Shown here one piece after another: positions 41 to 40,624 of a stretch of 40,624 nt of DNA (its first letter is position 1; every line of letters starts with the position of its first letter). The notes beneath the pieces are model-generated. The model searched no databases. It was not told where the DNA came from and was given only the letters and a program-made list of their open reading frames with translations. The stretch covers positions 1 through 40,624 of the forward strand of contig JBDRNT010000158.1 in NCBI GenBank assembly GCA_043810925.1, given 5' to 3'. Source of the stretch: Candidatus Eiseniibacteriota bacterium (GTDB lineage: Bacteria; Arandabacterota; Arandabacteria; Arandabacterales; Arandabacteraceae). The position numbers were made by a program, and so were the translations under genes.

Positions 41-140
41 GACATTCACCTCCTCCTATCAAGTTGAGGTGTCAGTCTAAGGCAGCCGACCCTGACATTT
101 CTATTATGCGGAAACCTGACATTATTATGTTGCCGTTACA
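1..140 (-). mobile_element. Left end of an IS1202/ISNCY-like insertion sequence (continues beyond window start)
   Basis: On the minus strand the end begins TGTAACGGCAAC at 140 and is followed by two subterminal repeats (plus strand cctgacatttctatt 91-105 and cctgacattattatg 115-129). A strong SD and a transposase-like start follow. A TGT terminus with repeated binding sites is typical of IS1202/IS481/IS21-type ends. Confidence 0.7.
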
Positions 141-268
141 CTCTAAAGAGTGGTGTGGCTTGAACCCCGCTTGAGTGGGCTTCGAGGCGGGCGGTTCCGC
201 ATCAGTGAAGAAGGTCATGCTGCTTAGGTGGCGATGATTGTCCTGTCTGGACAGTCGTACGGACCGCA

Positions 269-20706: not shown

Positions 20707-23700
20707 TCAGGCCCGCCTGTCAACAGCCAGTTTCGGCGCGAACCAGGCATACAGCGCAGGTATAAGAAACAGTGTCAGAAACGTCGAAGAGAGTATACCG
20801 AATACCACAACTGCGGCCAGCGGGCGTTGCACTTCAGATCCCATTCCACGCGAGAGCAGAAGCGGCACAAGGCCCAGTACGGTGGTCAGTGCCGTCATGA
20901 GCACCGGCCGCAAGCGGAGCATTGCACCCTTCACCACCGCCTCCGCAGTCTCCAGACCCGTCTCGCGCAACTGATTAATACAAGTGACGAGGACAAGCCC
21001 GTTCTGGACCGCGATACCGAACAGGGCAATGAATCCCACCGACGCGGGTACCGAGAGGTACTCTCTCATGATGAGCAGCCCAACGACACCTCCTATAAGT
21101 GCCATCGGCACATTTATGAAGATCAAGGTTGCCGAACGCAGCGTCCCAAGCGATAGGTAGAGCATTAGAAAGATCAGCACAAAGGCAGTAGGGACAATGA
21201 CGGTGAGACGTTTCATAGCACGTTGCTGGTTTTCGAACTGACCGCCGTACTCAAGCCAGTAACCCGGCGGCAGCGAGATGTTCTCTCCGACCCGTTCTTG
21301 TATATCCTTCACCACGCCGCCTATGTCACGTCCACGCACATTTGCACTGATGGTCCACAACCGGCTGTTCTTCTCCCGGTTAATCTGGATCGGACCCACA
21401 ACCTCCTTCACCTCGGCAACCTGTGAGAGCGGCACATGATATCCTGCCGATGTCGTCACCAAGAGGTTCCGCAGCGCCTCAGGATCATTCCGATACTGTT
21501 CCTGGTACCTGATGTGAATTCCGAAACGGCGTGTGTTGAGGTAGATATGGTCGATTACCTCACCCCCGACGGCGATCTCCACTATCTCGAGGATGTCGGA
21601 TACGTTCACATCGTATCGCGTGCAGGCCTCTCTATCAGCCACGATCTCGACCTGCGGTTGGCCGTAGCTTTGCTCTGTGGCAAGGTCGACCAGACCGGGG
21701 ATTCCGTCGATCGTCTCCCTTATCTCTTCCGCAGTTGTCCTCAGAACAGTCAGGTCGTCGCCATAGAGTTTGATCGCAAGCTGGGTCCTCACCCCCGAGA
21801 GCAGCTCGTCAAAGAGGTTCTGAATCGGTTGTGAGAAATTGAGTTGTACACCGGGGTAGTGTGAGAGTTCCCGGTTGAGCCCCTCGATCAGGTCGGCCTT
21901 GGTCTTGTAGTCCCCCCACTCGCTGCGGGGTTTGAGTGCAATCTGGATGTGCGCCGAGTTGACCGGATGGGGATGGCTCCCGGCCTCCGGACGACCGATC
22001 TTGGAGAGTGTTTCCTCAACCGGGCCGAACCGCCTGATGATCTGCTCGAGTTTCATTATGGTCCCGGTCGCCTTCTCAAGTGATATCGATGGAGCCATAG
22101 TAACATTGATCTGGATGATGCCTTCCTCAAGAACCGGTATGAATTCCGTTCCGAGCAATTGAGCCAACAGTAGAGTGACACCAAGAGCCACCACGGCACC
22201 CACCACGACGAACTTACGTCTCAGGATCGCTCCCTCAAGCAGCGGATGGTAGACGCGTTTGAGCGCCGCCACAAGCGCAGACTCCCGACCACCCCCGACA
22301 CGGAGCACCATCGAAGCCAGCGGAGGTGCAAACACTATTGCGATCACCGCCGAACCCAGGAGCGCAAGCGTAATGGTGAATGCCATTGGCGAGAACATCT
22401 TGCCTTCAACGCCCTCCAGTGTGAAGAGCGGCAGGAATACTATGATGATGATCGCAACCGAGAAGAGTATGGGCCTGGCGACCTCGCGGGCAGAGGAGAT
22501 TATGACCTCCGCCTTGCTGGCAAGCCTGTTGTGTTCGTCGTTCAGGTTTCTGTAGACATTCTCCACCATGACGATTGAGGCATCTCCAAGCATACCTATC
22601 GCTATCGCGATACCGCCGAGCGACATCAGATTGGCAGAAACCCCGCTTTGCTTCATGAAGATCACGGCAATCAGGGCACACAGCGGCAGCGCCAGCGCCA
22701 CGATCAGAGCCGAACGCACATTGCCCAGGAATACAAAGAGCGTGATCACGACAAGCAAGGCGCCCACAAGAAGGGCGTTCTTGACCGTCCCCGTCGCGTT
22801 ATTTACGAGACGGCTCTGGTTGTAATACGGGACGACCGTCACACCCTGCGGAAGCGATTCCTCGACCTCCGCAAACTTGAGATTGAGACGATCGATCACG
22901 TTAGAGGTGTTCTCACCAAAGAGCTTCATCACAATCCCCGCCACGACCTCCTCTTCACCGTTAAGCGTCACCACACCTCGCCGAATCTCATTTCCGTATG
23001 TTACTTCCGCCACATCGTGGATATGGACAGGGGTCCCGTCGACCACCTTTACCTGGATTTCGCGAATGTCATCGAGCGCAGTGGCAAGACCGAGTCCACG
23101 TACCAGGTACTCCTCCGAGCCCATCACAAGAAACTGGCCCCCGGCATTTGCGTTATTCGCAGTCATTGCATCGACGATTTCTCCGAGCTCGATGTCATGC
23201 TTGCGTAGCCGGTAGGGATCGACCCTGATCTGGTACTGGAGCACATGCCCGCCCATTGAGAGAATCTCCGTCACGCCGCGCACGGTCTGGAGCTGGAACT
23301 TAACGACCCAGTCATTGATCTCACGCAGCCACGCGAGTCTGTCCTTCCCTTCGGTGTCGGCCGTATCATCCGCCGTCAGGTAGTACATGAAGACTTCACC
23401 CAGGCCGGTGGAGATGGGACCGAGGACCGGTGGTTCGTGCATCTCCGGCAACTCCGCCACTGCACCCGCAAGACGTTCAGCCACGATCTGGCGGGCGAAG
23501 TAGATATCGACGTCATCCTCGAAATAGACATAGACCACGGCCATCCCAAAGGCCGACGTAGACTTGACAAGTCTCACTCCCGGGAGTCCGTTCATCGCCG
23601 ACTCGATCGGGAAGGTGATCAGCCGCTCGACTTCCTCCGGCGCCATGCCGTGAGCCTCCGCAAAAACCGACACCATCACGGGTGATATGTCGGGAAAAGC

Positions 23701-23811
23701 ATCGGTAGGAAGTCTGCGATACTGGACAACACCAAGCGCAATCGTCGCGACAAGTAAGACCACTACCAGCAGACGGTTCTTAAGCGTCCAGGCTACAATT
23801 GCTTCAACCAT
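20707..23811 (-). CDS. czcA: CusA/CzcA family heavy-metal RND efflux transporter
   Basis: 1034 aa; DAFPDIS, EVERLITFPIE, NLMSLGG, EGKMFSPMA, GQFENQQRA, RLRPVLMTA, GSEVQRPLA. Confidence 0.93.
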   Translation of the reverse strand: MVEAIVAWTLKNRLLVVVLLVATIALGVVQYRRLPTDAFPDISPVMVSVFAEAHGMAPEEVERLITFPIESAMNGLPGVRLVKSTSAFGMAVVYVYFEDDVDIYFARQIVAERLAGAVAELPEMHEPPVLGPISTGLGEVFMYYLTADDTADTEGKDRLAWLREINDWVVKFQLQTVRGVTEILSMGGHVLQYQIRVDPYRLRKHDIELGEIVDAMTANNANAGGQFLVMGSEEYLVRGLGLATALDDIREIQVKVVDGTPVHIHDVAEVTYGNEIRRGVVTLNGEEEVVAGIVMKLFGENTSNVIDRLNLKFAEVEESLPQGVTVVPYYNQSRLVNNATGTVKNALLVGALLVVITLFVFLGNVRSALIVALALPLCALIAVIFMKQSGVSANLMSLGGIAIAIGMLGDASIVMVENVYRNLNDEHNRLASKAEVIISSAREVARPILFSVAIIIIVFLPLFTLEGVEGKMFSPMAFTITLALLGSAVIAIVFAPPLASMVLRVGGGRESALVAALKRVYHPLLEGAILRRKFVVVGAVVALGVTLLLAQLLGTEFIPVLEEGIIQINVTMAPSISLEKATGTIMKLEQIIRRFGPVEETLSKIGRPEAGSHPHPVNSAHIQIALKPRSEWGDYKTKADLIEGLNRELSHYPGVQLNFSQPIQNLFDELLSGVRTQLAIKLYGDDLTVLRTTAEEIRETIDGIPGLVDLATEQSYGQPQVEIVADREACTRYDVNVSDILEIVEIAVGGEVIDHIYLNTRRFGIHIRYQEQYRNDPEALRNLLVTTSAGYHVPLSQVAEVKEVVGPIQINREKNSRLWTISANVRGRDIGGVVKDIQERVGENISLPPGYWLEYGGQFENQQRAMKRLTVIVPTAFVLIFLMLYLSLGTLRSATLIFINVPMALIGGVVGLLIMREYLSVPASVGFIALFGIAVQNGLVLVTCINQLRETGLETAEAVVKGAMLRLRPVLMTALTTVLGLVPLLLSRGMGSEVQRPLAAVVVFGILSSTFLTLFLIPALYAWFAPKLAVDRRA

Positions 23812-23826
23812 CGATGACCTCCTCTC

Positions 23827-24897
23827 TTAATGTCCGTGACCTGCGTGGTCACCCAGGTTGGCGGTCACCATCTTGGCCTTGAGTTCAAAAGCGCCCTTTG
23901 CAACATAGGCGTCTCCCTCGTGGAGCCCCTCTACGATCTCCACCCTGTCTTCACCGCTGAACCCGGTCTCAACGGCAACGATTTCGAATTCGCCTTCCTC
24001 CTCCCCGGGCACGAATACCACTTGCATAGCGCCCAGGGTCTGGACTGCTCCCTTCTCGACAGTGAGACACGAACCGGAGATTTCCACAGGTACTGAGGTT
24101 CGTATGAACGTACCGGGTCGCCAGAAATCGCCATTGTTGGAAAGCACCGCCCTGGCAAGGGCGCTTCGCTTGTGCTCGCTGTAAACCGGCGCAACATAGG
24201 AAAGCCTCGCCTCGACCGACTGTCCTCCATCCACTGCGCTTACCGTCACACCGGCGCCTTGCCCGACATACGGCATATCCTTGGCATAGACTTCACAATT
24301 GGCCCAGACCGTCGACAGGTCGGCAATCAGAAACATATCGTGATCCTCTGCAACAAACTCACCCACTGTGAGGTGTTTGTGGATGATGCGCCCGGAAATC
24401 GGCGCCTTGATGGTGTAGCGGGAAAGACTCTCGTTGCTTTCGAGCACGGCCAGAACGTCGCCCTCTTTGACATGGGCGCCGATACGGCCGTGAACTTCCC
24501 GGGCAACACCGGCATAGCGCGGTGTCACATGCACCAACCGGTCCTCATTGAAACCGATCTCTCCCGGTAACTCGATCGTCCGTGCAAGTGTGGCCGGGCG
24601 TGCGCTTTCAATCCGTATACCGGCAAGCCTGATTGCCTCCGCCGAGAGATGCACTACGTCCTCGTCGTGGCCATCGGCTTCATGATCATGTCCGGCATGC
24701 TCATCGGTTTCATCACCGGGGCTCTCCCCGTGAGTCTCCTCAGAGCGGCCGTCGTGATCACTTTCGTCTTCATTCATATGCGCGTCGTGGTCGTGCGCTT
24801 CGGTATCTTCTTGTTCGCTCCCCCCGCTACATCCAGCGAGTACGGCCAACGCCAGAACGGCAAGGATTATCACAAGTTTCAAGACGTGCCTGTTCAT
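23827..24897 (-). CDS. czcB: RND periplasmic adaptor (CzcB/CusB-like) lipoprotein with His-rich segments
   Basis: Lipobox LAG-C; His/acidic linker (HDHDAH, HAGHDH); lipoyl-like IKAPISG; C-terminal HAGHGH. Confidence 0.9.
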   Translation of the reverse strand: MNRHVLKLVIILAVLALAVLAGCSGGSEQEDTEAHDHDAHMNEDESDHDGRSEETHGESPGDETDEHAGHDHEADGHDEDVVHLSAEAIRLAGIRIESARPATLARTIELPGEIGFNEDRLVHVTPRYAGVAREVHGRIGAHVKEGDVLAVLESNESLSRYTIKAPISGRIIHKHLTVGEFVAEDHDMFLIADLSTVWANCEVYAKDMPYVGQGAGVTVSAVDGGQSVEARLSYVAPVYSEHKRSALARAVLSNNGDFWRPGTFIRTSVPVEISGSCLTVEKGAVQTLGAMQVVFVPGEEEGEFEIVAVETGFSGEDRVEIVEGLHEGDAYVAKGAFELKAKMVTANLGDHAGHGH

Positions 24898-24907
24898 GCT
24901 TCCCCCC

Positions 24908-26134
24908 TTATCTGATGATCTCGATCCGGTAACTGGTCAGCTCTAATAGGTCAGCTGCTAGCAGCGCCCGTTCTTCCAGGAGATCTACGATTCTCATGCG
25001 AAGCTCGAGCAGATGGCTTCTTGCCTCAAGTACATCCAGAATGCCGGTCTTGCCCTGCACGTAGAATTCCTCGAGCGACTGATGAACATACGTGGCTTTT
25101 GACAGGAGTTCGCCCGAGAGAGCATCCAGATCCCTGCCGGTTCCCTCCATATCCGAATAGAGCGTTGTGAGCTGAGCGGCACGTTCAAGCCGCTCACGCT
25201 CGGCCGCATGTTCCGCCGCAGCCATCTCGTGATGCTTCTCGGTAACTGCGGCCTTATTCCGGTTAAGTATCGGTAGTGAAAATGAAACGCCTGTGATTGC
25301 TGCTTCTTCGTCCAGCTCGTTATTACGCAGGTAGCCTGCGCTCAGTGCGAGTTCGGGTCTTCCCTCCGCACGTGCCTCATCCATCTCCGCTTTGATCAAT
25401 CGCTTTTTCCCCTCAAGCAACAGCCAGTCAGGGTGTCTTTCCATGGCTGCAGAGATCTCGGCAACCGGTGGCAGGTAGACCGAACCCGGGAGCGAGCCAT
25501 CAACTCGGTCGAATCCAGGGGCTATCTCCCCCCAGAGCTCCCCGAGCTGTACCCTGCCCTCCGCAAGGCTTCGCGTGATCTCCGCACGCTCAAGGTTAAG
25601 CTCGTCTCCTTCGAGCTGAGACCGCACCACGTCAAGTGCCATGGCTCCGCCCGCATCGACCAGCCCTTGCACCGCCTCGGTGCTCCTCGCGGACACCTCA
25701 AGCAGGGAGTCAACAAGCTCAAGCCTGCGGTTTGCTGCGAGAAGCGGGATGAAACGCCGAATCAGCTCCGCCTCAACTGAGATCTTCCCACTCTCAAGTC
25801 TGAGTTCGGCGATCTCCACTTCGCGCTTGGCCACGCTGACAGCTGCGCCTCTCGTCCCACCGATTAGTAGCGGCTGGGTGAGAACGACCTCAATCTCGGC
25901 CTTACCGAATTTCTCGGCCGTAACCTCAATCTCAGGATTCGGATATGCTCCGGCCCGGCGAACAGCAGCCTCAGCTGCCGCCACCTCTTCCGCGAGGGCC
26001 CTGAGACCTTCATGTTGGGCCAGGACCATCTCCTGGGCCTGGGAAAATCCCAGTGTTTGTGCCCCTGCCGGCGCACCCGCTGAGAGCGTCACTAGCGCGA
26101 CCATTGCAACAAGCTTGCACGTGACATGTGGCAT
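24908..26134 (-). CDS. czcC: TolC/CzcC outer-membrane efflux protein
   Basis: Signal peptide; AYPNPE, SLPILNRN, GKTGILDVLEA; operon position. Start chosen from SD AGAGGT. Confidence 0.88.
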   Translation of the reverse strand: MPHVTCKLVAMVALVTLSAGAPAGAQTLGFSQAQEMVLAQHEGLRALAEEVAAAEAAVRRAGAYPNPEIEVTAEKFGKAEIEVVLTQPLLIGGTRGAAVSVAKREVEIAELRLESGKISVEAELIRRFIPLLAANRRLELVDSLLEVSARSTEAVQGLVDAGGAMALDVVRSQLEGDELNLERAEITRSLAEGRVQLGELWGEIAPGFDRVDGSLPGSVYLPPVAEISAAMERHPDWLLLEGKKRLIKAEMDEARAEGRPELALSAGYLRNNELDEEAAITGVSFSLPILNRNKAAVTEKHHEMAAAEHAAERERLERAAQLTTLYSDMEGTGRDLDALSGELLSKATYVHQSLEEFYVQGKTGILDVLEARSHLLELRMRIVDLLEERALLAADLLELTSYRIEIIR

Positions 26135-26245
26135 ACGCATTACCTCTTTCATTCTTGGTTTGACAGAAGCATCAGGCAGCAATTGTGCCCGGGATCGGCA
26201 GTCGGTGAGGTCGACACCGACGTGCTAAATGCATAGAGATGGGAA

Positions 26246-32280: not shown

Positions 32281-32630
32281 CTATGAATTGCCTTGGTGAG
32301 CGAGGTAGGTGATGAAGCGTTCAAGGTAGGGAGGGTGGTGAGGTGTCACGCATGATGGCGGCGTACCAGATCCGTTTGAAGCCGGCTTTGGTCACCCGGA
32401 TTGCTTTGAGCTCCGAAGCCTTGAGATAGGGTCTGGCCGACCAGAGGTTGAGGACAGCCACCCCCATGCCGGCCCTTACCATCTCAACGATTGCATCGGT
32501 CAGCGGCAGATTGATGAGTGACTTCGGTGTTACTCCCGCCGGCATAAGTACCTTCTGATAAAAGGCCACTTCCTCAACCGGGATATCGTAGTTGATCAGG
32601 TGCTGGCCGGCAAGGTGCCCGGCAGGATCA
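32281..32630 (-). pseudogene. LysR-type regulator remnant (C-terminal substrate-binding part only, frameshifted)
   Basis: 'LTDAIVEMVRAGMGVAVL..W' and 'RIWYAA' are LysR C-domain motifs; no HTH or start. A frameshift near 32330 continues as PYLERFITYLAHQGNS* to TAG at 32281. The upstream boundary is approximate. Confidence 0.8.
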
Positions 32631-32738
32631 TGCGAAGCTGAGCTGTCTATCACAGCATTTCAGGCCACACAAAGCCAATTCGTGGGTATAGTAGAAATGA
32701 CGCCAACGACGCCACAACGAGTATCAGGAGGGACGCCC

Positions 32739-35279
32739 ATGGACCGCAGGGACAGCTATCGCTTTGTCACGGCAGTTTCCTTTGTTGCAGTCACTTTCGG
32801 CCTCATCCTCGTCTCCAGCGCAGCCTTTGGATTTCAGGAGGGCGTGATCGTAAGGGTGGAAAAGCCGGTCAGCACCGAGACGCTCTCTCAGGCCGGTATG
32901 TTCTACCTGGCCGATCTCGGAGAGGCTTACCTCGTACAGGGTAGCCCGGCTGCAGCCCGAAGGCTTGCGGAGTCCGCAGCCGACTTCAGAGTCATGGCAT
33001 CACTGCAGGCAGGGAAATCTGCTTATCTTCTAAGGCCCCGGAGGTCTCAGAAGGAGATGCCTTATTCAGTGGCTCTCGTCGAAGTCGCGAGAGGCGTGTA
33101 CCTGGCCCAGATGGATATGGCAGAGGCGGAAGACCCGAGTCTTCTCCAGTTCTCAAAGGCCAGACTAGTGCCCTACACCTTCATTCAGCGAGAGCCGCAG
33201 GTACTTCCCTACGCCCCAGCCGCGATCACACCCAAACCACAAATAGTCGGCCTCGTTGCAGAAGTCTCCGGCGATAGTCTGTGGCGCTACATATCCCAGC
33301 TAAGCGGTGAGGAAGGCGCGGTAATCAACGGTGTGCCGGATACGATTCTCACGCGTTACTCCTTTAGCACCGGGATCGATAACGCGGCCGACTACCTGTG
33401 TGAACGCTTCGAGGAATACGGCGTGGATGTGGAGTTTCAGGAGTACGTACAGGGTAGGTACGACTTCTATGATCTCGATTTTATAAACGAGAACTGCGGC
33501 TGGGTGGTGGGATACCAACAGCGGATCTATAAGACAACCGACGCGGGTCTTACCTGGACAAGACAGAAGACCTTTGCCTTTAATGACATATACATCGACG
33601 TCTGCTTTATTGACTCACTTGAAGGCTGGATCTGTGGTGTCTCCGCCGCCATCTACCATACCGCAGACGGCGGGGCCTCATGGACCAGGCAGACCGCCTC
33701 CACCGGGAGCCCCGCCTGGCTCAATGACATATGCTTCATCGATTCGCTCAATGGCTGGGTCGCAGGGCAGAACGGTTCGATCGCAAGCACCACGGATGGA
33801 GGCAACATTTGGGGAGATGATGTGACCGGGACAACCGAGGCCATCTACGGCCTGTGGTTCAGGTCGGCAGACAGGGGTTGGGCTTGCGGGGATATGGGAA
33901 CCATCCTCTTCTGGGACGGGATATCCTGGACTTCCCAGACGAGCGGTGCGAGTGACTTCCTCCGCGATGTCTGCTTCATCGATGACAATACCGGCTGGGT
34001 CGTGGGAGCAGACCGGACCCTGCTTAAGACCACGGACGGGGGACAAAACTGGATAGCGCAAACGGTACCCGGTAGTCCCAACCCTTACCTCATGGATGTA
34101 TGCTTCATCGACTCCCTTGAGGGATGGGTGGCTGAATATGATGGTACGATTCTCCACACCACCGACAGTGGCGCCAGCTGGGAGATTCAGCATGCCGAGG
34201 GATCTCCGGCTCTTTACGGCATCGACGTTGTGAGTGCCTCCCACGGCTGGGCTGCGGGCTTAAGCTGTGCGATCCAGCACACGGCCGATGGCGGAGATAT
34301 CTGGGAAAGCCAGACCACCAACCTTTCAACCGGCGCCTGGAAGCTCAACAAGAACGTGGTTGCAACCAAGCCGGGGACCGTCTCCGACGAGCAGGTGATT
34401 ATCTGCGGTCACTACGACAGCATATCAGAGGTCTCCGCGACACTGGCACCCGGTGCTGATGACAATGCCAGCGGCACATCGGCGGTGGTCGAGGCCGCAC
34501 GGGTCATGGCTGATTTTCCCTGTGAGCGGACGATCAAGTTTGTCTGCTTCGCGGGTGAGGAACAGGGCCTGCTCGGAAGCAGCGAGTATGCCGGACGGGC
34601 GCTCTATGCCGGTGATGCGATTGTGGGAGTCTTAAACTGCGATATGATTGCCTACGTCGACTCCGCTCCGGAAGACGTCAATATCGTGAGCGACTCGGTC
34701 TCGGAGTGGATGGCTGACCTGGCGATCGATTGTGCCGACGCTTATGTCCCGACGCTTCTCACCCGCAAGATCATTGATCCTGACATGCTCTACAGCGACC
34801 ATGCTTCTTTCTGGCGGCTCGGATTCAATGCTCTGGACAACGAGGAAGATACTCCGATTGTCTATCCTGCTTACCACACAACGGGAGACAGGATCCACAA
34901 TCTCACACAGTCGTTTGCCACGAATGTCGCCGAGATGGCGGTGGCCACACTTGCTGAACTTGCTATACCCGATACGTCCATCTCCGGCGTGATTGGATCT
35001 GAGATCACCTTTATTATGTCGGTGGAGCCGAATCCCTTCACCGCGACGACAAGGCTTCGCTTTGCACTCAATGCTGTCAGCGACGTCAGCGTAAGCCTGT
35101 TTGATGTGGAAGGCAGGTTGGTCAAAACGCTTGTTGAGACATCATTACCACCGGGTCGGCATGATGCTTTTTGGGATGGAAGGGACGAGCGAGGGCGGAG
35201 GGTTTCACCGGGAGTCTACTTTGCGAGCGTCGAGACCGAAAGAGCGAGCACACACAGCAAGGTTGTACTCCTGAAATAG
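32739..35279 (+). CDS. Secreted M28 metallopeptidase with inserted YCF48/BNR beta-propeller and C-terminal FlgD/T9SS-like domain
   Basis: SD AGGAGG; signal peptide; GHYDS, PGADDNASG, GEEQGL, SDHASF, YHT; repeated TxDGGxxW; PNPF...DVEGRLV...WDG...PGVYF. Confidence 0.92.
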   Translation: MDRRDSYRFVTAVSFVAVTFGLILVSSAAFGFQEGVIVRVEKPVSTETLSQAGMFYLADLGEAYLVQGSPAAARRLAESAADFRVMASLQAGKSAYLLRPRRSQKEMPYSVALVEVARGVYLAQMDMAEAEDPSLLQFSKARLVPYTFIQREPQVLPYAPAAITPKPQIVGLVAEVSGDSLWRYISQLSGEEGAVINGVPDTILTRYSFSTGIDNAADYLCERFEEYGVDVEFQEYVQGRYDFYDLDFINENCGWVVGYQQRIYKTTDAGLTWTRQKTFAFNDIYIDVCFIDSLEGWICGVSAAIYHTADGGASWTRQTASTGSPAWLNDICFIDSLNGWVAGQNGSIASTTDGGNIWGDDVTGTTEAIYGLWFRSADRGWACGDMGTILFWDGISWTSQTSGASDFLRDVCFIDDNTGWVVGADRTLLKTTDGGQNWIAQTVPGSPNPYLMDVCFIDSLEGWVAEYDGTILHTTDSGASWEIQHAEGSPALYGIDVVSASHGWAAGLSCAIQHTADGGDIWESQTTNLSTGAWKLNKNVVATKPGTVSDEQVIICGHYDSISEVSATLAPGADDNASGTSAVVEAARVMADFPCERTIKFVCFAGEEQGLLGSSEYAGRALYAGDAIVGVLNCDMIAYVDSAPEDVNIVSDSVSEWMADLAIDCADAYVPTLLTRKIIDPDMLYSDHASFWRLGFNALDNEEDTPIVYPAYHTTGDRIHNLTQSFATNVAEMAVATLAELAIPDTSISGVIGSEITFIMSVEPNPFTATTRLRFALNAVSDVSVSLFDVEGRLVKTLVETSLPPGRHDAFWDGRDERGRRVSPGVYFASVETERASTHSKVVLLK

Positions 35280-35325: not shown

Positions 35326-35469
35326 GCCGGTCTCGATATGGAACAGGCCCTGGATGTTGTATGAGCCTTGCTCATACATTCCATCAATTTATTTCACTGT
35401 ATACGCAGATATGCCAGAATTATGCTTGGCATACAAGCAGCAAGAAAGGGGCATGAGAGGAGGAACACG

Positions 35470-37017
35470 ATGAAGCATACGGCGACGTACCTGTTGGTTA
35501 TTTTTTTGATGGTGCCGGTTTTCGTCCTGGCGCTCGCGGGTCTCACAACTGCCGGCGAGATTCACGATGCGATAAGTGCCGGAGACATGAGTAAGGTGGA
35601 AGCTATCCTGGCCGCCGATCCCGGCCAGATCTCGGCCCGCAATGATGCCCTCGGCACCCCTCTTCACGTTGCAGTCTCAGACAGCCAGGTCGACATCGCG
35701 CGATTTCTCATTTCGAGGGGCGCTGATGTCAATGCCGGTGACAGCGACAACTCGCGGCCACTTCACTGGGCCGCGTTTGAGCGCAAGCGCGAGTTGGTCG
35801 AGATACTTCTGGAGGCCGGGGCCGATCTTGAGATCGTGGAGGACTACGGGAACTCTCCACTCACCTACGCAATCTACGGCGGGGATACGGGGATCGTTAA
35901 TCTCCTGCTTGACCGGGGCGCGGATCCGCACCACGCCAATACGCAGGGACAGATACCGCTCCAGTACGCAGTTGCGATAGGGCGACTGGAGATCGTTAAG
36001 ATCCTGGTGGCCCATGGCGCTGATGTCAATCACGTGGATGCCTACGGCCTGACGCCCCTGTTTTCGGCCAAGGCCAGGGGATGGGATGAGATCGCCGCTT
36101 ATCTAAAAGAGGTGGGAGCAACCCGTGACTTTGAGATTCCAAAAGCCAAGGTGGAGATGCTTGCGCCCGCCTTCCATGTGGTCACCGTGCCGCTGAGCAA
36201 CCGAACCAACTGCGGTGTACAGTCAGGAGAGGATGGCTTGCTCTTGGTCGATACGGGTTACCAGTCATCGGCATCGCGAATCTTAGAAGCACTTGCGGAA
36301 ATATCCGGAAGCAAGCACACCGACGATCCCGGTGTTGAGTACATCATCACCACTCACTTACACGGTGATCACTTCTCCGCACATAGCTACGTGGACAGCA
36401 CGGCAACCGTGATCGATTTTACGAACCTTGATCAGATGGTGACCGACGGCATTCTGACCAGGGCCGAGATGGGGCTAAAGGGTCGTACGGGCGAACCTTA
36501 CGGGTTCATCGCTGAGGGGAAGCCGAAATTCATGAGCGGCAAAGATCTGTCGTTTGCCCCCCATTACTCGATGAACTTCAACGGTGAGGAGATTCTGCTG
36601 ATTCCAGCCGCGGGCACCCACTCCGAGACCGATCTGCTCATCTGGTTCAAGCAGTCTGGCGTTGTCTGCACAGGAAGCCTCCTCCTTTCTGAGTCCTTTC
36701 CGGGCGTCTCGGCGGGAAAGATCGAGCCGTATCTCGACATTCTTTGTACGATGATCGATGTATTCCCCGATGACACCATGTTCACGGCGGGTCACGGGCG
36801 CACGGTCGACATGGCAGGTCTCAAGAACTACACAGTGATGGTGATGTCGTCGGCAGAAGCAATCCACGAGGAAGTGCTTAAGGGAAAATCCGTGGATGAG
36901 ATGTTGGCTGAGGACATCCTGGGGCCATGGTCTGAGTATGGCGAATGTCCCTTCATGCCATACCAGACTCCCCGGGTATGGATCTCGGCCGTAGCCCGAA
37001 CGTACATTATAGAATAG
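35470..37017 (+). CDS. Secreted ankyrin-repeat / metallo-beta-lactamase-fold fusion protein
   Basis: SD GAGGAGG; signal peptide; about 5 ankyrin repeats (TPLH, GADVN); LLVDTG, THLHGDH, THS, GHG. Confidence 0.9.
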   Translation: MKHTATYLLVIFLMVPVFVLALAGLTTAGEIHDAISAGDMSKVEAILAADPGQISARNDALGTPLHVAVSDSQVDIARFLISRGADVNAGDSDNSRPLHWAAFERKRELVEILLEAGADLEIVEDYGNSPLTYAIYGGDTGIVNLLLDRGADPHHANTQGQIPLQYAVAIGRLEIVKILVAHGADVNHVDAYGLTPLFSAKARGWDEIAAYLKEVGATRDFEIPKAKVEMLAPAFHVVTVPLSNRTNCGVQSGEDGLLLVDTGYQSSASRILEALAEISGSKHTDDPGVEYIITTHLHGDHFSAHSYVDSTATVIDFTNLDQMVTDGILTRAEMGLKGRTGEPYGFIAEGKPKFMSGKDLSFAPHYSMNFNGEEILLIPAAGTHSETDLLIWFKQSGVVCTGSLLLSESFPGVSAGKIEPYLDILCTMIDVFPDDTMFTAGHGRTVDMAGLKNYTVMVMSSAEAIHEEVLKGKSVDEMLAEDILGPWSEYGECPFMPYQTPRVWISAVARTYIIE

Positions 37018-37422: not shown

Positions 37423-37731
37423 ATGAAGGTGGTAATCATATTGATCGTTATGCTCTTGACCGTGTCGGTCGCAGCTCTGGGAGATGCCGGCAATAGTGGT
37501 CACATGGGGTACGGAGACCGTATGATGAGCTATGGAGGGGGGCTTCTAATGTGGCTTATAATCCTCATCGTGGCGGCGATAGTGGTCTATGCGGCGTTCC
37601 AGCTCACAAGATCCAGAGGACAGGCTGGAACCACGGGAGAGACGCCGCTAGATATTCTTAAGAAGCGCTATGCGAGAGGCGAGATAACCCTCGAGGAATT
37701 TGAGGAAAAGAAGAGGCATCTGATGACCTGA
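37423..37731 (+). CDS. SHOCT-domain membrane protein
   Basis: Signal, Gly/Met-rich segment and TM helix, then ETPLDILKKRYARGEITLEEFEE. Confidence 0.9.
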   Translation: MKVVIILIVMLLTVSVAALGDAGNSGHMGYGDRMMSYGGGLLMWLIILIVAAIVVYAAFQLTRSRGQAGTTGETPLDILKKRYARGEITLEEFEEKKRHLMT

Positions 37732-37857: not shown

Positions 37858-38412
37858 TCAATGGTGGATCTCGTGCTCCGTGGTCTCCTCTGACTTCTCT
37901 GGCTCGGGAGCAGGGCTTTCAGATTTATCTCCCTTCATGCGCTTACCATCCATCATGCCCTTGTCACCCATCGTGCCTTTGCCGCCCATCATGCCACCAC
38001 CCTCCATCATACCGCCCTCTCCCATCATCTTCTCCATCACTGGGCACTTTTCACCCATGTGCATCATCATCCTATGCATATCCCCCATGCCAACCTTTAG
38101 CTCGGCTTCCTCCTTCAGATTCAGATGCCTGTCGTACTTGTAAAGCTTTCCGCCGAGCATCACTACGACCCCACCGTCTCTTGTCGCCACAAGAACCGGT
38201 TCAGCCATTGATTCCATCATCTTGTGCATGGGGCACATCTGCGTCATGCCCTGACACATCATGCCCCCGTGGCACTTCATGTCCCCACCACTCATCATTT
38301 CGCCTTTCATCCCCGTCCCCCCAGCTTTCATCGTACCCTCATAAGCCAGGACAGTGGAGGCGACGGCACACAACAAAACCAGACCAAACAGCACTGCCAT
38401 CTTCCCCTGCAT
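37858..38412 (-). CDS. Exported Met/Gly/His-rich protein, likely periplasmic copper-binding
   Basis: Signal peptide; many MM/GGMM repeats, CPM/CPV, C-terminal HEIHH; downstream of the Cu ATPase. Confidence 0.8.
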   Translation of the reverse strand: MQGKMAVLFGLVLLCAVASTVLAYEGTMKAGGTGMKGEMMSGGDMKCHGGMMCQGMTQMCPMHKMMESMAEPVLVATRDGGVVVMLGGKLYKYDRHLNLKEEAELKVGMGDMHRMMMHMGEKCPVMEKMMGEGGMMEGGGMMGGKGTMGDKGMMDGKRMKGDKSESPAPEPEKSEETTEHEIHH

Positions 38413-38415
38413 TTA

Positions 38416-39483
38416 CTACCTCCTCTTCTTCAAAAGATAGTCCTTTGCACTCAGTGCAGCCTTCGCCCCTTCGCCGGAGGCGATGATGATCCTCTTACCA
38501 AAGGAGTTAGCTGCGTCCCCGCAGGCGAACACACCTGCAACATTCGTTGAACAGTCAGGGCCTATGATTATCTCCCCCCTCTCGTTGAGTCCAACCAGAT
38601 CCTGACAGAACTCGGTGTTGGGTGTGAAGCCCACCTGAATGAAGACGCCATCGCATCGGGCCTCTCGTCTTTCCTTGCCATCATCCGTTTGGATGACGAT
38701 CCCCTCTACCTTGTCTTCTCCTTTGATCTCGACAACATCATATCTTTCCAGTATCTCAACACGTTCAGACCCTCTGAGGACATCGATATCAGATTGGTCA
38801 GCGATTAGATTGCCTTTCGACAGTAGAATCACTTCGCAGCCCATGCCTTTTAGATCATTGGCTGTCTGCACTGCCGAATTGCCACCGCCGACAACTGCAA
38901 CAACGGAGTCCGGCAGCCGGGGAATATCATGCACCATCCTGTAGAATATGCCTCGTCTCTGTAGTCGCTCCTCACCCGGGATGCCGAGTTTTCTCCGCTT
39001 CATGCCACTGGCAACAATGGTTGCACGTGTCCTAAGTCGCCGTTTGGCTCTTGTCAGAATTTCCAGGCTATCATCCGCCCGGTTGATGTTCACAACCTCG
39101 TCTATGCAATGGTCCAAGTAATGCTTATGCAGAAACTGGTCGCTGAACTTCCTGACAAGATCGGGACCGCTAATGAAATCAAAGCCCATATAGTTCTTGA
39201 TTTTCGTACTGTCGATGGCCTGGCCACCGATGTCTTTGGCCAGCAGAATCGTGTCGATCTGCTGCACAGAGACATAGACTGCCGCCGTCAGCCCGGCAGG
39301 TCCACCACCGATGATCACGAGATCATACATGTGCTTTTCCAGGTAGTCCTTGTGCTGGCTTTTGAATCGATCCAGACATCCCAGGGAACAAAACAGATTC
39401 TTCTTACCCTCGTACTCGAAACCAAAGTCCTCGCTGTCAACTTCCATTCCGCAGATCGGATCTCTCATTGCCGGCTCTGTCAC
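38416..39483 (-). CDS. YHS/TRASH domain fused to thioredoxin-reductase-like FAD/NAD(P) oxidoreductase lacking CxxC
   Basis: DPICGM...FCSLGC; GGGPAGLTAA, ASG, VVGGGNSA, GVFACGD; GTG at 39483 chosen from SD AGGAGG. Confidence 0.9.
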   Translation of the reverse strand: MTEPAMRDPICGMEVDSEDFGFEYEGKKNLFCSLGCLDRFKSQHKDYLEKHMYDLVIIGGGPAGLTAAVYVSVQQIDTILLAKDIGGQAIDSTKIKNYMGFDFISGPDLVRKFSDQFLHKHYLDHCIDEVVNINRADDSLEILTRAKRRLRTRATIVASGMKRRKLGIPGEERLQRRGIFYRMVHDIPRLPDSVVAVVGGGNSAVQTANDLKGMGCEVILLSKGNLIADQSDIDVLRGSERVEILERYDVVEIKGEDKVEGIVIQTDDGKERREARCDGVFIQVGFTPNTEFCQDLVGLNERGEIIIGPDCSTNVAGVFACGDAANSFGKRIIIASGEGAKAALSAKDYLLKKRR

Positions 39484-39495
39484 TCTGAGCACCTC

Positions 39496-40624
39496 CTACT
39501 TCGGAACACGCAGGAACCGCGCGTTGACTGCAACGATCACTGTACTTAAGGACATGAGTACAGCACCCATAGCAGGGCTCAAGATTATTCCCGACCGGTA
39601 GAGCACGCCTGCTGCCAGGGGAATCGCAAAGGCATTGTAGCCCGTTGCCCACACCAGATTCTGGACCATCTTTCTGTAGGTCGCACGAGCCAGCCTGATG
39701 ATGGAGACCGCATCGAGAGGATTGCTCTTGACAAGCACTATGTCGGCTGTTTCGACGGCCACGTCGGTCCCTGCACCGATTGCTATTCCCACATCTGCCT
39801 GTGCAAGAGCAGGCGCATCATTCACTCCATCCCCTGTCATCGCAACAACCAGTCCCCGCTGCTGTACCTCCCTTACCTTAGCTGCCTTCTCCTCAGGTAG
39901 AACCTCAGCAAAGTACTCATCCAACCCGATTTCGTCGGACACCGACCGCGCAACCTCTCCGTTGTCGCCAGTGAGCATCATACACCTGATTCCCATTTCC
40001 TTTAATTGGGAGATGGCCTCCCTGGATTCGGGCCTGATAATATCGGCGAGGGCAATCGCACCACTGAGTTTGTCCTCGATCATCACAAAGACGACTGTCT
40101 TTCCTTGCCCGGCGAGGCCCGCGATCCGTTCATCGTCAACTGCAACGCCTCTATCTCTCAGAAAGCCCGGGCTTACGACTTCCACGTGCTTGCCCTTGAC
40201 AGTGCCCTCTGCACCTCTGCCGGGAATCGCGCGGAAACCTTTGACAGGTAGCGCTACCGGATTTGAGGCCGCAATCGCTTTCGCAATTGGGTGCTCAGAG
40301 TGTGCTTCCACTGCCGCAGCATACTGCACAAGTCCATCTGAATCTACGTCATCCGTGAGAGGCACGATGTCCGTGACCCCAAATCGGCCCTCGGTAAGCG
40401 TCCCCGTTTTGTCGAATATGATTGCTTGTATGCTGCGGGCCTTCTCGAAGGCAGCTCGATCCCTTATCAGAAGACCCTCCTTCGCGGAGAGCGCTGTCGA
40501 GACCGCCACAACCAGGGGGACGGCAAGCCCAAGCGCGTGCGGACAGGTTATCACCATCACGGTTACAGTTCGTTCGAGGGCAAAGGCAAAGTCCTTGTCA
40601 AGTATTACAAACCATACGAAGAGC
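39496..40624 (-). CDS. copB: Copper-translocating P1B-type ATPase (CPH motif, CopB-like), 5' end beyond window
   Basis: CPHALGLA, DKTGTLT, SEHP, TGDN, GDGVNDAPAL, YN, MSLST. Confidence 0.92.
   Translation of the reverse strand, partial: LFVWFVILDKDFAFALERTVTVMVITCPHALGLAVPLVVAVSTALSAKEGLLIRDRAAFEKARSIQAIIFDKTGTLTEGRFGVTDIVPLTDDVDSDGLVQYAAAVEAHSEHPIAKAIAASNPVALPVKGFRAIPGRGAEGTVKGKHVEVVSPGFLRDRGVAVDDERIAGLAGQGKTVVFVMIEDKLSGAIALADIIRPESREAISQLKEMGIRCMMLTGDNGEVARSVSDEIGLDEYFAEVLPEEKAAKVREVQQRGLVVAMTGDGVNDAPALAQADVGIAIGAGTDVAVETADIVLVKSNPLDAVSIIRLARATYRKMVQNLVWATGYNAFAIPLAAGVLYRSGIILSPAMGAVLMSLSTVIVAVNARFLRVPK

Follow-up and report, generated by a model that had tools for sequence, protein, structure and literature searches.

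The stretch of DNA analysed here (the window, 40,624 nt, which is the entire contig JBDRNT010000158.1 of a Candidatus Eiseniibacteriota bacterium) carries on its minus strand a gene for a flavoprotein in which an N-terminal YHS/TRASH metal-binding domain is fused to a core of the thioredoxin reductase (TrxR) and AhpF type that has lost the redox-active CxxC motif. The longest open frame of this gene extends from 38416 to 39492, with a GTG at 39492, and encodes 358 aa. We preferred the GTG at 39483, because it is preceded by a well-spaced AGGAGG and is also the start of the gene-caller protein P0001, which is identical to the resulting 355-aa product. Residue numbers follow this 355-aa protein unless the 358-aa frame is named. 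The AGGAGG overlaps the TAG stop codon (39496-39498) of the upstream gene, which encodes a P1B copper ATPase. At the other end, the stop codon of the flavoprotein gene (38416-38418) is followed, 3 nt beyond, by the ATG of a gene for a Met-rich exported protein, and a GGAGG ahead of this ATG lies within the last flavoprotein codons. From these overlaps of ribosome-binding sequences and gene ends on either side, we read the ATPase, the flavoprotein and the Met-rich protein as one translationally coupled unit. The original prediction, made from the letters of the window alone, had placed the gene tightly between a CPH-type copper ATPase and a Met-rich exported protein, and both the overlaps and the 3-nt spacing bear this out. 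The Met-rich protein matched no Pfam or NCBIfam family, and a scan for promoters and terminators returned nothing beyond the expectation from shuffled sequences.

The ATPase gene is broken by the end of the contig. The part inside the window carries its CPH in the motif ITCPHAL, and the N-terminal half, with a His-rich tail, was located at the end of another contig of the same assembly, C1 (L098:9708-10769, L098:8628-9451 region). With respect to the 181 positions of PF00122, the C1 part covers positions 3-133 and the part in the window positions 135-180. The His-rich N-terminal half, together with the CPH motif, identifies the pump as CopB type. Upstream of this half on C1 and divergent from it are genes for a 149-aa membrane protein without a Pfam family and for a stand-alone 78-aa YHS protein (54.2 bits).

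Domains of the YHS flavoprotein

The YHS domain (residues 10-52 of the 358-aa frame) scored 39.1 bits against a Pfam cut-off of 30.3, and 43.1 bits in a further scan. TRASH motifs are defined by the pattern C-x19-22-C-x3-C with a conserved D-P. The flavoprotein shows C-x20-C-x3-C (C11, C32 and C36), with D8-P9 before the first Cys and a Met (M13) at the second position behind it. The domain belongs to PF04945 by its bit score, which exceeds the gathering cut-off, as well as by its Cys spacing and the D-P. The core displays the flavin adenine dinucleotide (FAD) and nicotinamide dinucleotide motifs GGGPAG, GGGNSA and FACGD. At the former redox site it reads FYRMVHD, with neither a Cys nor an in-frame stop codon, and where the canonical TrxR of the same genome has IHRRDELRA, the flavoprotein has LLSKGNLIAD, so that HRR is replaced by S-K-G. 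Most of these traits had been called by the original prediction, namely a Cys-bearing YHS/TRASH module at the N-terminus, intact FAD and NAD(P)H motifs (GGGPAG, GGGNSA, GD), FYRMVHD without Cys or TGA in place of CxxC, and the absence of HRR. All of them stood: the coordinates of FYRMVHD were exact, and the coenzyme motifs proved to be conserved in 120 homologues.

Table 1. Features of the copper operon and of related loci. Positions refer to the window unless a locus is named.
Feature	Position	Strand	Evidence
YHS-fused CxxC-less TrxR/AhpF-like flavoprotein gene	38416..39483	-	open reading frame (ORF), 355 aa, GTG start; Pfam and NCBIfam matches
Shine-Dalgarno AGGAGG of the flavoprotein	39492..39497	-	8 nt upstream of GTG 39483
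YHS/TRASH metal-binding domain	39337..39465	-	PF04945; D8, P9, C11, M13, C32, C36
FAD/NAD(P)H core, low-Mr TrxR / AhpF C-terminal type	38485..39327	-	Pyr_redox_2 (residues 56-336 of the 358-aa frame) E 6.9e-34; AhpF 4o5q E 1.9e-50
HYLDH, H121-x3-H125 signature	39109..39123	-	in a 2-3 residue insertion relative to CxxC-bearing relatives
FYRMVHD, former CxxC-D redox site	38926..38946	-	aligned with YCPHCD of E. coli AhpF
CPH-motif P1B copper ATPase, CopB type, C-terminal 375 aa	39496..40623	-	TIGR01525 401.9 bits (cut-off 346.25), TIGR01511 390.3 bits
Met-rich exported protein, last operon gene	37858..38412	-	33 Met in 184 aa (18%), signal-peptide-like N-terminus
Small membrane protein with SHOCT domain, convergent to the operon	37423..37731	+	PF09851 E 5.4e-11
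YHS-fusion examples in clusters of relatives	L051:8123-8995, L014:3626-5512, L042:1740-3662, L069:1467-2867, L008:7291-8394, L021:4146-5312		

Among solved structures, the nearest relative was E. coli AhpF (E 1.9e-50, ~36% identity). The C-terminal TrxR-like module of AhpF from E. coli and Salmonella (4o5q, 1hyu, 1fl2) has in common with the flavoprotein the two-domain FAD/NAD(P)H fold, an LL-x...-AD stretch at the dinucleotide site in place of HRR, and an extra domain tethered N-terminal to the FAD domain. In contrast to AhpF, the YHS flavoprotein has no CxxC, its tethered domain is a 50-aa YHS/TRASH metal binder rather than a double thioredoxin fold, and its operon lacks an AhpC gene. Low-Mr TrxR shares with it the fold, GGQ, GGGNS and GD, and the Asp after the second Cys position is kept, whereas S/F-Y-x-x-V-Q/H stands for CxxC and HRR is missing. 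Curated models were not reached in either case, with 247.5 bits against a cut-off of 502.9 for AhpF (TIGR03140; profile positions 203-514 of 515 only) and 234.4 bits against 343.45 for low-Mr TrxR (TIGR01292). The TrxR fold without CxxC is also found in the TrxR-like ferredoxin/flavodoxin:NADP+ oxidoreductases (FNR-type proteins) such as B. subtilis YumC (3lzw) and B. cereus FNR2 (6gas). These chains are more distant (E 5.6e-28 and 2.3e-25, Z 26.6-26.8, versus E 1e-50 to 1e-45 for AhpF/TrxR), retain motifs of the HRR type, for instance in rows P0198, P0241 and P0262, and have no YHS domain; their loss of CxxC looks like a separate event.

Automatic annotation takes the protein for an ordinary TrxR or AhpF, and many members of the family have been named ‘alkyl hydroperoxide reductase subunit F’ by the Joint Genome Institute (JGI). 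We give this identity practically no credence: there is no CxxC and no AhpF N-terminal domain, both curated scores lie below their cut-offs, and a canonical TrxR (SYCATCDG, HRRD) is encoded on another contig of the same genome. The names ‘AhpF’ and ‘thioredoxin reductase’ that the family now bears in databases are wrong. As far as its motifs tell, the YHS flavoprotein keeps a complete FAD site and a dinucleotide site, whereas the dithiol with which TrxR and AhpF reduce disulfides is gone.

An AlphaFold2 (AF2) model of the full protein had a mean predicted local distance difference test (pLDDT) of 82.5 and a predicted template modelling score (pTM) of 0.70, and was weak at residues 89-102. The modelled core superposed on 4a5l_A with Z 31.0 and a root-mean-square deviation (rmsd) of 3.2 over 301 residues, and on 4o5q with Z 30.9. 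Its domain arrangement was closer to the flavin-reducing (FR) than to the flavin-oxidising (FO) state of TrxR (rmsd 4.1 versus 7.2 for the L. lactis enzyme; for E. coli, 4.1 with 1f6m versus 6.9-7.0 with 1tde/1trb), which says little about the true conformational cycle. The isolated YHS model (pLDDT 82.4) had no match at Z 5 or above among 48,161 chains, the weak fold matches being eL24, a zf-HIT domain and the copper chaperone NosL, all three at Z 4.3, and a MYM TRASH domain (Z 3.0). A search of the ESM Atlas returned only generically named TrxR-like clusters.

Loss of CxxC and gain of the YHS domain

We compared the flavoprotein with its 120 nearest proteins in a collection of 5.8 billion (54-84% identity, all listing PF04945). 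None of them carried CxxC at the aligned site, where the consensus was S-Y-S-S-V-Q-D and the family form S/F-Y/H-x-x-V/I-Q/H-D. Position 181 was Y or H in 119 sequences, position 185 was Q in 97 and H in 23, and position 186 was D or E in all 120; a single Cys at 180 occurred in 12. In the metal-binding domain, C32 and C36 were present in 120/120, C11 in 114 (the other six rows are N-terminally cut) and M13 in 118, and the P, C, M, F-C-S and C of the YHS domain were invariant in the 58 N-terminal segments (58/58). Inside the core, G59, P62, G64, G86-G87-Q88, G199, G201 and G322 did not vary and D323 was kept in at least 90% of the homologues. H121 and H125 were also found in all 120, and H125 is kept in every YHS-bearing subfamily, including distant ones, and absent from CxxC-bearing relatives. 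The Met/His site that the original prediction had considered at the former active site did not survive this comparison, since M183 occurs in 8/120 and position 185 is His in only the 23 sequences mentioned.

The family comprises two subfamilies. The type to which this flavoprotein belongs has four extra conserved Cys (C277, C293, C311 and C321), while the Nitrospirota/Thermodesulfobacteriota type reads FYGNIQD, lacks three of those four Cys and has extra Cys residues in the YHS domain. We considered the Cys quartet as a family-wide iron-sulphur (Fe-S) or Cu-cluster site and rejected it, since it is absent from the FYGNIQD subfamily and C311 is also found in AhpF. In addition, a Bacteroidales subgroup (L015, L027, L029, L036, L038) has a YHS domain that opens with C-P-V-C instead of D-P-V-C, giving a four-Cys site, and a longer N-terminal extension.

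The invariant or near-invariant FAD and NAD(P)H motifs of the 120 homologues indicate that the protein is a real flavoenzyme. They also bear on the idea of a non-redox copper chaperone or buffer built on a decayed TrxR scaffold, in which the flavin portion would be a mere vestige. Such a protein could well be without the redox dithiol, and the Cys quartet of this subfamily could bind extra Cu(I), but a vestigial site is not expected to stay (near-)invariant in 120 sequences of this divergence and the quartet is missing from the Nitrospirota-type subfamily; we regard this explanation as very improbable.

A profile search of 1.84 billion representative proteins gave 47,565 matches at E ≤0.001, the best 150 of which were inspected. 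Eleven of these 150 contained TRASH, and none of the eight that span the former redox site had CxxC. The TRASH-less rows included 119 with CxxC, 18 without it and 2 that did not span the site; four of the 18 were N-terminally cut fragments bearing the motifs of the YHS-flavoprotein family, and the remaining ones include HRR-bearing FNR-like proteins. On a FastTree phylogeny built from the core alone (117 rows, after removal of fragments, of proteins longer than 450 aa and of rows in which no GxGxxG could be recognised), the 13 YHS rows formed one clade with a Shimodaira-Hasegawa-like support of 95 and no YHS-less rows inside. Besides, a gene had been called at 73 genome loci; the sole CxxC protein there (L060) was also the sole full-length one to have neither the TRASH motif nor H125. 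Conservation of the CxxC loss among YHS-bearing homologues, on which the original prediction turned, therefore held both for the 120 nearest proteins and for the eight site-spanning TRASH rows. Since the loss is conserved across the family, the copy in the window is not simply a decayed version. In the sequences compared, CxxC loss and YHS fusion go strictly together, and such strict coupling of a gain and a loss favours a catalytic role for this domain.

Genomic neighbourhoods of the relatives

A pattern scan using one genome per species detected relatives in 290 species genomes, and 80 loci were examined. Fifty-three of them were cut off on at least one side and 27 had at least 5 kb on both sides. 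A P-type ATPase was present in the fetched DNA at 38/80 loci, 36 times on the same strand. Two of these ATPases (L004 and L070) were P2-type by Pfam, which leaves P1B pumps at 36/80 loci, within ~6 kb; at the 27 loci with flanks on both sides, the number was 15. Five sampled genomes (1.4-5.3 Mb) contained one to four P1B pumps each, and by our estimate chance adjacency would account for a few per cent at most. The linkage, which the original prediction had also set up as a check, recurs in many phyla (at least nine named ones) and involves both CPC and CPH pumps. N-terminal domains of the 35 full-length P1B pumps were YHS in 17, HMBD only in 6 and HMA only in 2, with no Pfam domain in the other 10.

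Further genes recurred in these neighbourhoods: Met-rich ORFs (27/80 loci), SHOCT (18), further YHS proteins (17), P-II (14), ICMT-like (11), multicopper oxidase (10), CusA (7), DUF302 (7), HMA (6), CsoR (5) and NDH-2 (4). The Met-rich ORFs were counted by composition, because tblastn with the Met-rich protein of the window (37858-38412) found a relative at only 1/80 loci. Altogether, at least one of ATPase, multicopper oxidase, CusA, CsoR, HMA or other YHS protein was present at 56/80 loci. By its motifs, the YHS flavoprotein is no disulfide reductase any more and carries a soft-metal site, namely the Cys3(+Met/Asp) site of its YHS/TRASH domain, which a short tether joins to the core at the N-terminus. 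It is genetically tied to copper export and, in the window, co-translated with a CopB-type pump.

MerA with its NmerA domain is a soft-metal-binding head tethered to a pyridine-nucleotide flavoprotein and encoded beside metal transport genes. The design logic of the YHS flavoprotein is alike, so that it might be a reductase for another metal or metalloid, such as Ag(I), Au(III), Hg(II), Fe(III) or tellurite/selenite, built in the way of MerA. However, MerA belongs to another flavoprotein class, has an HMA head and relies on CxxxxC and a C-terminal Cys pair, both absent here, and its model (TIGR02053) gave 59 bits against a cut-off of 454.45. The neighbouring families are of copper type (multicopper oxidase, CusAB, CsoR, CopA/CopB), and no Mer family was matched by any of the 53 representative neighbour proteins scanned. 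On the other side, TRASH domains also occur in archaeal mer operons, as stated in the accessible part of one paper (PMC3466566), and Ag(I) is also exported by P1B-1 pumps, according to the accessible part of a review (PMC7558416). We judge a metal other than copper to be improbable.

Two gene families of the neighbourhoods deserve mention on their own. Small proteins of the P-II family (f2, e.g. L034:5596-5937) lie in the copper clusters of their 14 loci often beside CusA/CusB. A gene for an NDH-2-type flavoprotein (f19) is found a few genes from the YHS flavoprotein at L010:4403-5740 and at three other Bacteroidota-type loci; the same review, in its accessible part, presents E. coli NDH-2 as an enzyme with a known unspecific cupric reductase activity (PMC7558416).

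Possible roles in copper export

P1B pumps and their chaperones handle Cu(I). In the part of the review that is accessible, Cu(II) reduction is described as a prerequisite for export, CPH-type (P1B-3) pumps are noted to have been moved into P1B-1, which is the subgroup for Cu(I)/Ag(I), and the prokaryotic cupric reductases dealt with are CcoG, unspecific NDH-2/quinol activities and A. fulgidus CopZ; the sole specific bacterial one named there is CcoG, a membrane Fe-S protein whose electron donor is not known (PMC7558416). CcoG of Rhodobacter, NDH-2 of E. coli and CopZ of A. fulgidus do, according to that same text, the job proposed here, that is, to provide Cu(I) for chaperones and P1B pumps (PMC7558416). 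CopZ, like the YHS flavoprotein, joins a redox module to a copper-binding module. CcoG and CopZ rely on Fe-S clusters with electron donors that are not known, and CcoG is bound to the membrane, whereas the YHS flavoprotein is soluble, flavin-based and equipped with its own NAD(P)H site.

We tentatively favour the reading that the YHS flavoprotein binds copper in the cytoplasm and, as an NAD(P)H flavoenzyme, assists P1B copper-export pumps by acting as copper reductase or donor. The flavin would be reduced by NAD(P)H, and electrons would then pass to copper captured by the YHS domain, either directly, converting Cu(II) into Cu(I), or by way of YHS thiols, which would be returned to the reduced state after their oxidation by Cu(II). 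Finally, Cu(I) would be handed from the YHS domain to the metal-binding domain of the pump, which is a YHS too in half of the neighbouring pumps. The conserved Y/H181, Q/H185, D186 and H125 are candidates for a new catalytic or docking site. A docking of the detached YHS domain against the core, FAD included, speaks for this reading with a verdict of ‘weak support’: it scored 0.52, and the best control 0.00. That mark was reached by 116/157 solved complexes and by 2/215 mismatched pairs, but scores of 0.60 or less came from just 18 of the 157 solved complexes and from both mismatches; the runs agreed in at least 94% of contacts with a partner pLDDT of at least 77. This widespread family may represent a cytoplasmic copper reductase or donor that has so far been missing for pumps of this kind. 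If so, a soluble flavoprotein encoded beside the pump, with an NAD(P)H site and a copper-binding head of its own, would fill the cupric-reductase gap with a directly assayable enzyme, and the family would offer a clean natural case of active-site relocation, the dithiol being lost exactly where the metal-binding domain was gained. A stronger claim, that this family provides prokaryotic copper export with its first dedicated, soluble NAD(P)H:Cu(II) oxidoreductase, is possible, though we find it rather doubtful. The redox relay would in that event have moved from the CxxC of TrxR/AhpF to the Cys of the fused TRASH domain, which would reduce Cu(II), keep the Cu(I) and pass it to the pump by YHS-to-YHS exchange, making the family a copper counterpart of MerA across a dozen mostly anaerobic phyla.

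Several points weigh against a copper reductase or donor. The hosts are mostly anaerobes, whose cytoplasm should reduce Cu(II) unaided. Reasoning from the fold, one would expect a long distance between the isoalloxazine and the N-terminal end of the Rossmann beta-1 strand, and consequently direct electron transfer from flavin to YHS is not assured. The support from docking is weak. No P1B pump was present in the fetched DNA at 44/80 loci (53/80 being cut off on a side), and at 24/80 loci none of the six metal-gene classes counted above was found. Residue 185 showed no correlation with pump type (18 Q and 3 H beside CPC pumps, 11 Q and 2 H beside CPH pumps). Lastly, several other products of these clusters bear a fused YHS domain, namely a soluble histidine kinase, a PEP-utilising enzyme, glycogen phosphorylase, trehalose synthase (TreT), a PfkB sugar kinase and an ArsP permease. 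Fusions to kinases and metabolic enzymes fit a sensory or regulatory role of YHS better than one of holding a substrate.

These fusions lead to the main rival explanation, a serious one that we consider possible though somewhat less probable. Here, the YHS domain would be a copper sensor that switches on or off a flavoenzyme with a non-copper substrate (quinone, O2, ferredoxin/flavodoxin or a small thiol-independent acceptor), and the protein would be part of the copper-stress response without touching the metal catalytically. Soluble histidine kinases encoded at related loci have YHS as their only sensory domain, several metabolic enzymes are fused to it as well, and CxxC-less ferredoxin/flavodoxin reductases of the TrxR fold exist and are detectable relatives (3lzw, 6gas). 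In addition, the YHS domain of a Mycobacterium phlei adenylyl cyclase confers a Cu-specific activation, as reported in the accessible part of that study (PMC4626032). That domain is of the same Pfam family, with a conserved Asp and three Cys, again as far as the accessible text describes it (PMC4626032), but it is C-terminal and regulatory, on a cyclase, whereas the YHS domain in the window lies at the N-terminus of a flavoprotein, the active site of which was altered simultaneously. A bolt-on regulator would not need the loss of the dithiol, yet no YHS-bearing member keeps CxxC. Moreover, the YHS rows make up a single clade of the core tree with no YHS-less rows within, and the family is nearer to AhpF/TrxR than to the ferredoxin reductases. 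As to the enzymes that share these clusters, the YHS fusions to sugar enzymes suggest that these anaerobes have their carbohydrate and trehalose metabolism under copper-gated control.

The original prediction did not recognise this copper module as described, and our literature search, which left subscription-only papers and supplementary files outside, likewise found no paper on a YHS-TrxR fusion.

Elsewhere in the window, three other loci were observed. An RND efflux operon (OEP, an HlyD/CusB-type barrel-sandwich protein and an AcrB-type pump) occupies 20707-26182 of the minus strand, ~12 kb from the copper operon. On the plus strand, 32592-35279 encodes an 895-aa protein in which Ycf48/BNR-like propeller repeats are joined to an M28 peptidase domain and, at the C-terminus, to a FlgD-Ig-like domain, and 35368-37017 encodes a 549-aa protein with an N-terminal signal or anchor, several ankyrin repeats and a metallo-beta-lactamase domain, a pairing that is unusual in a bacterium.

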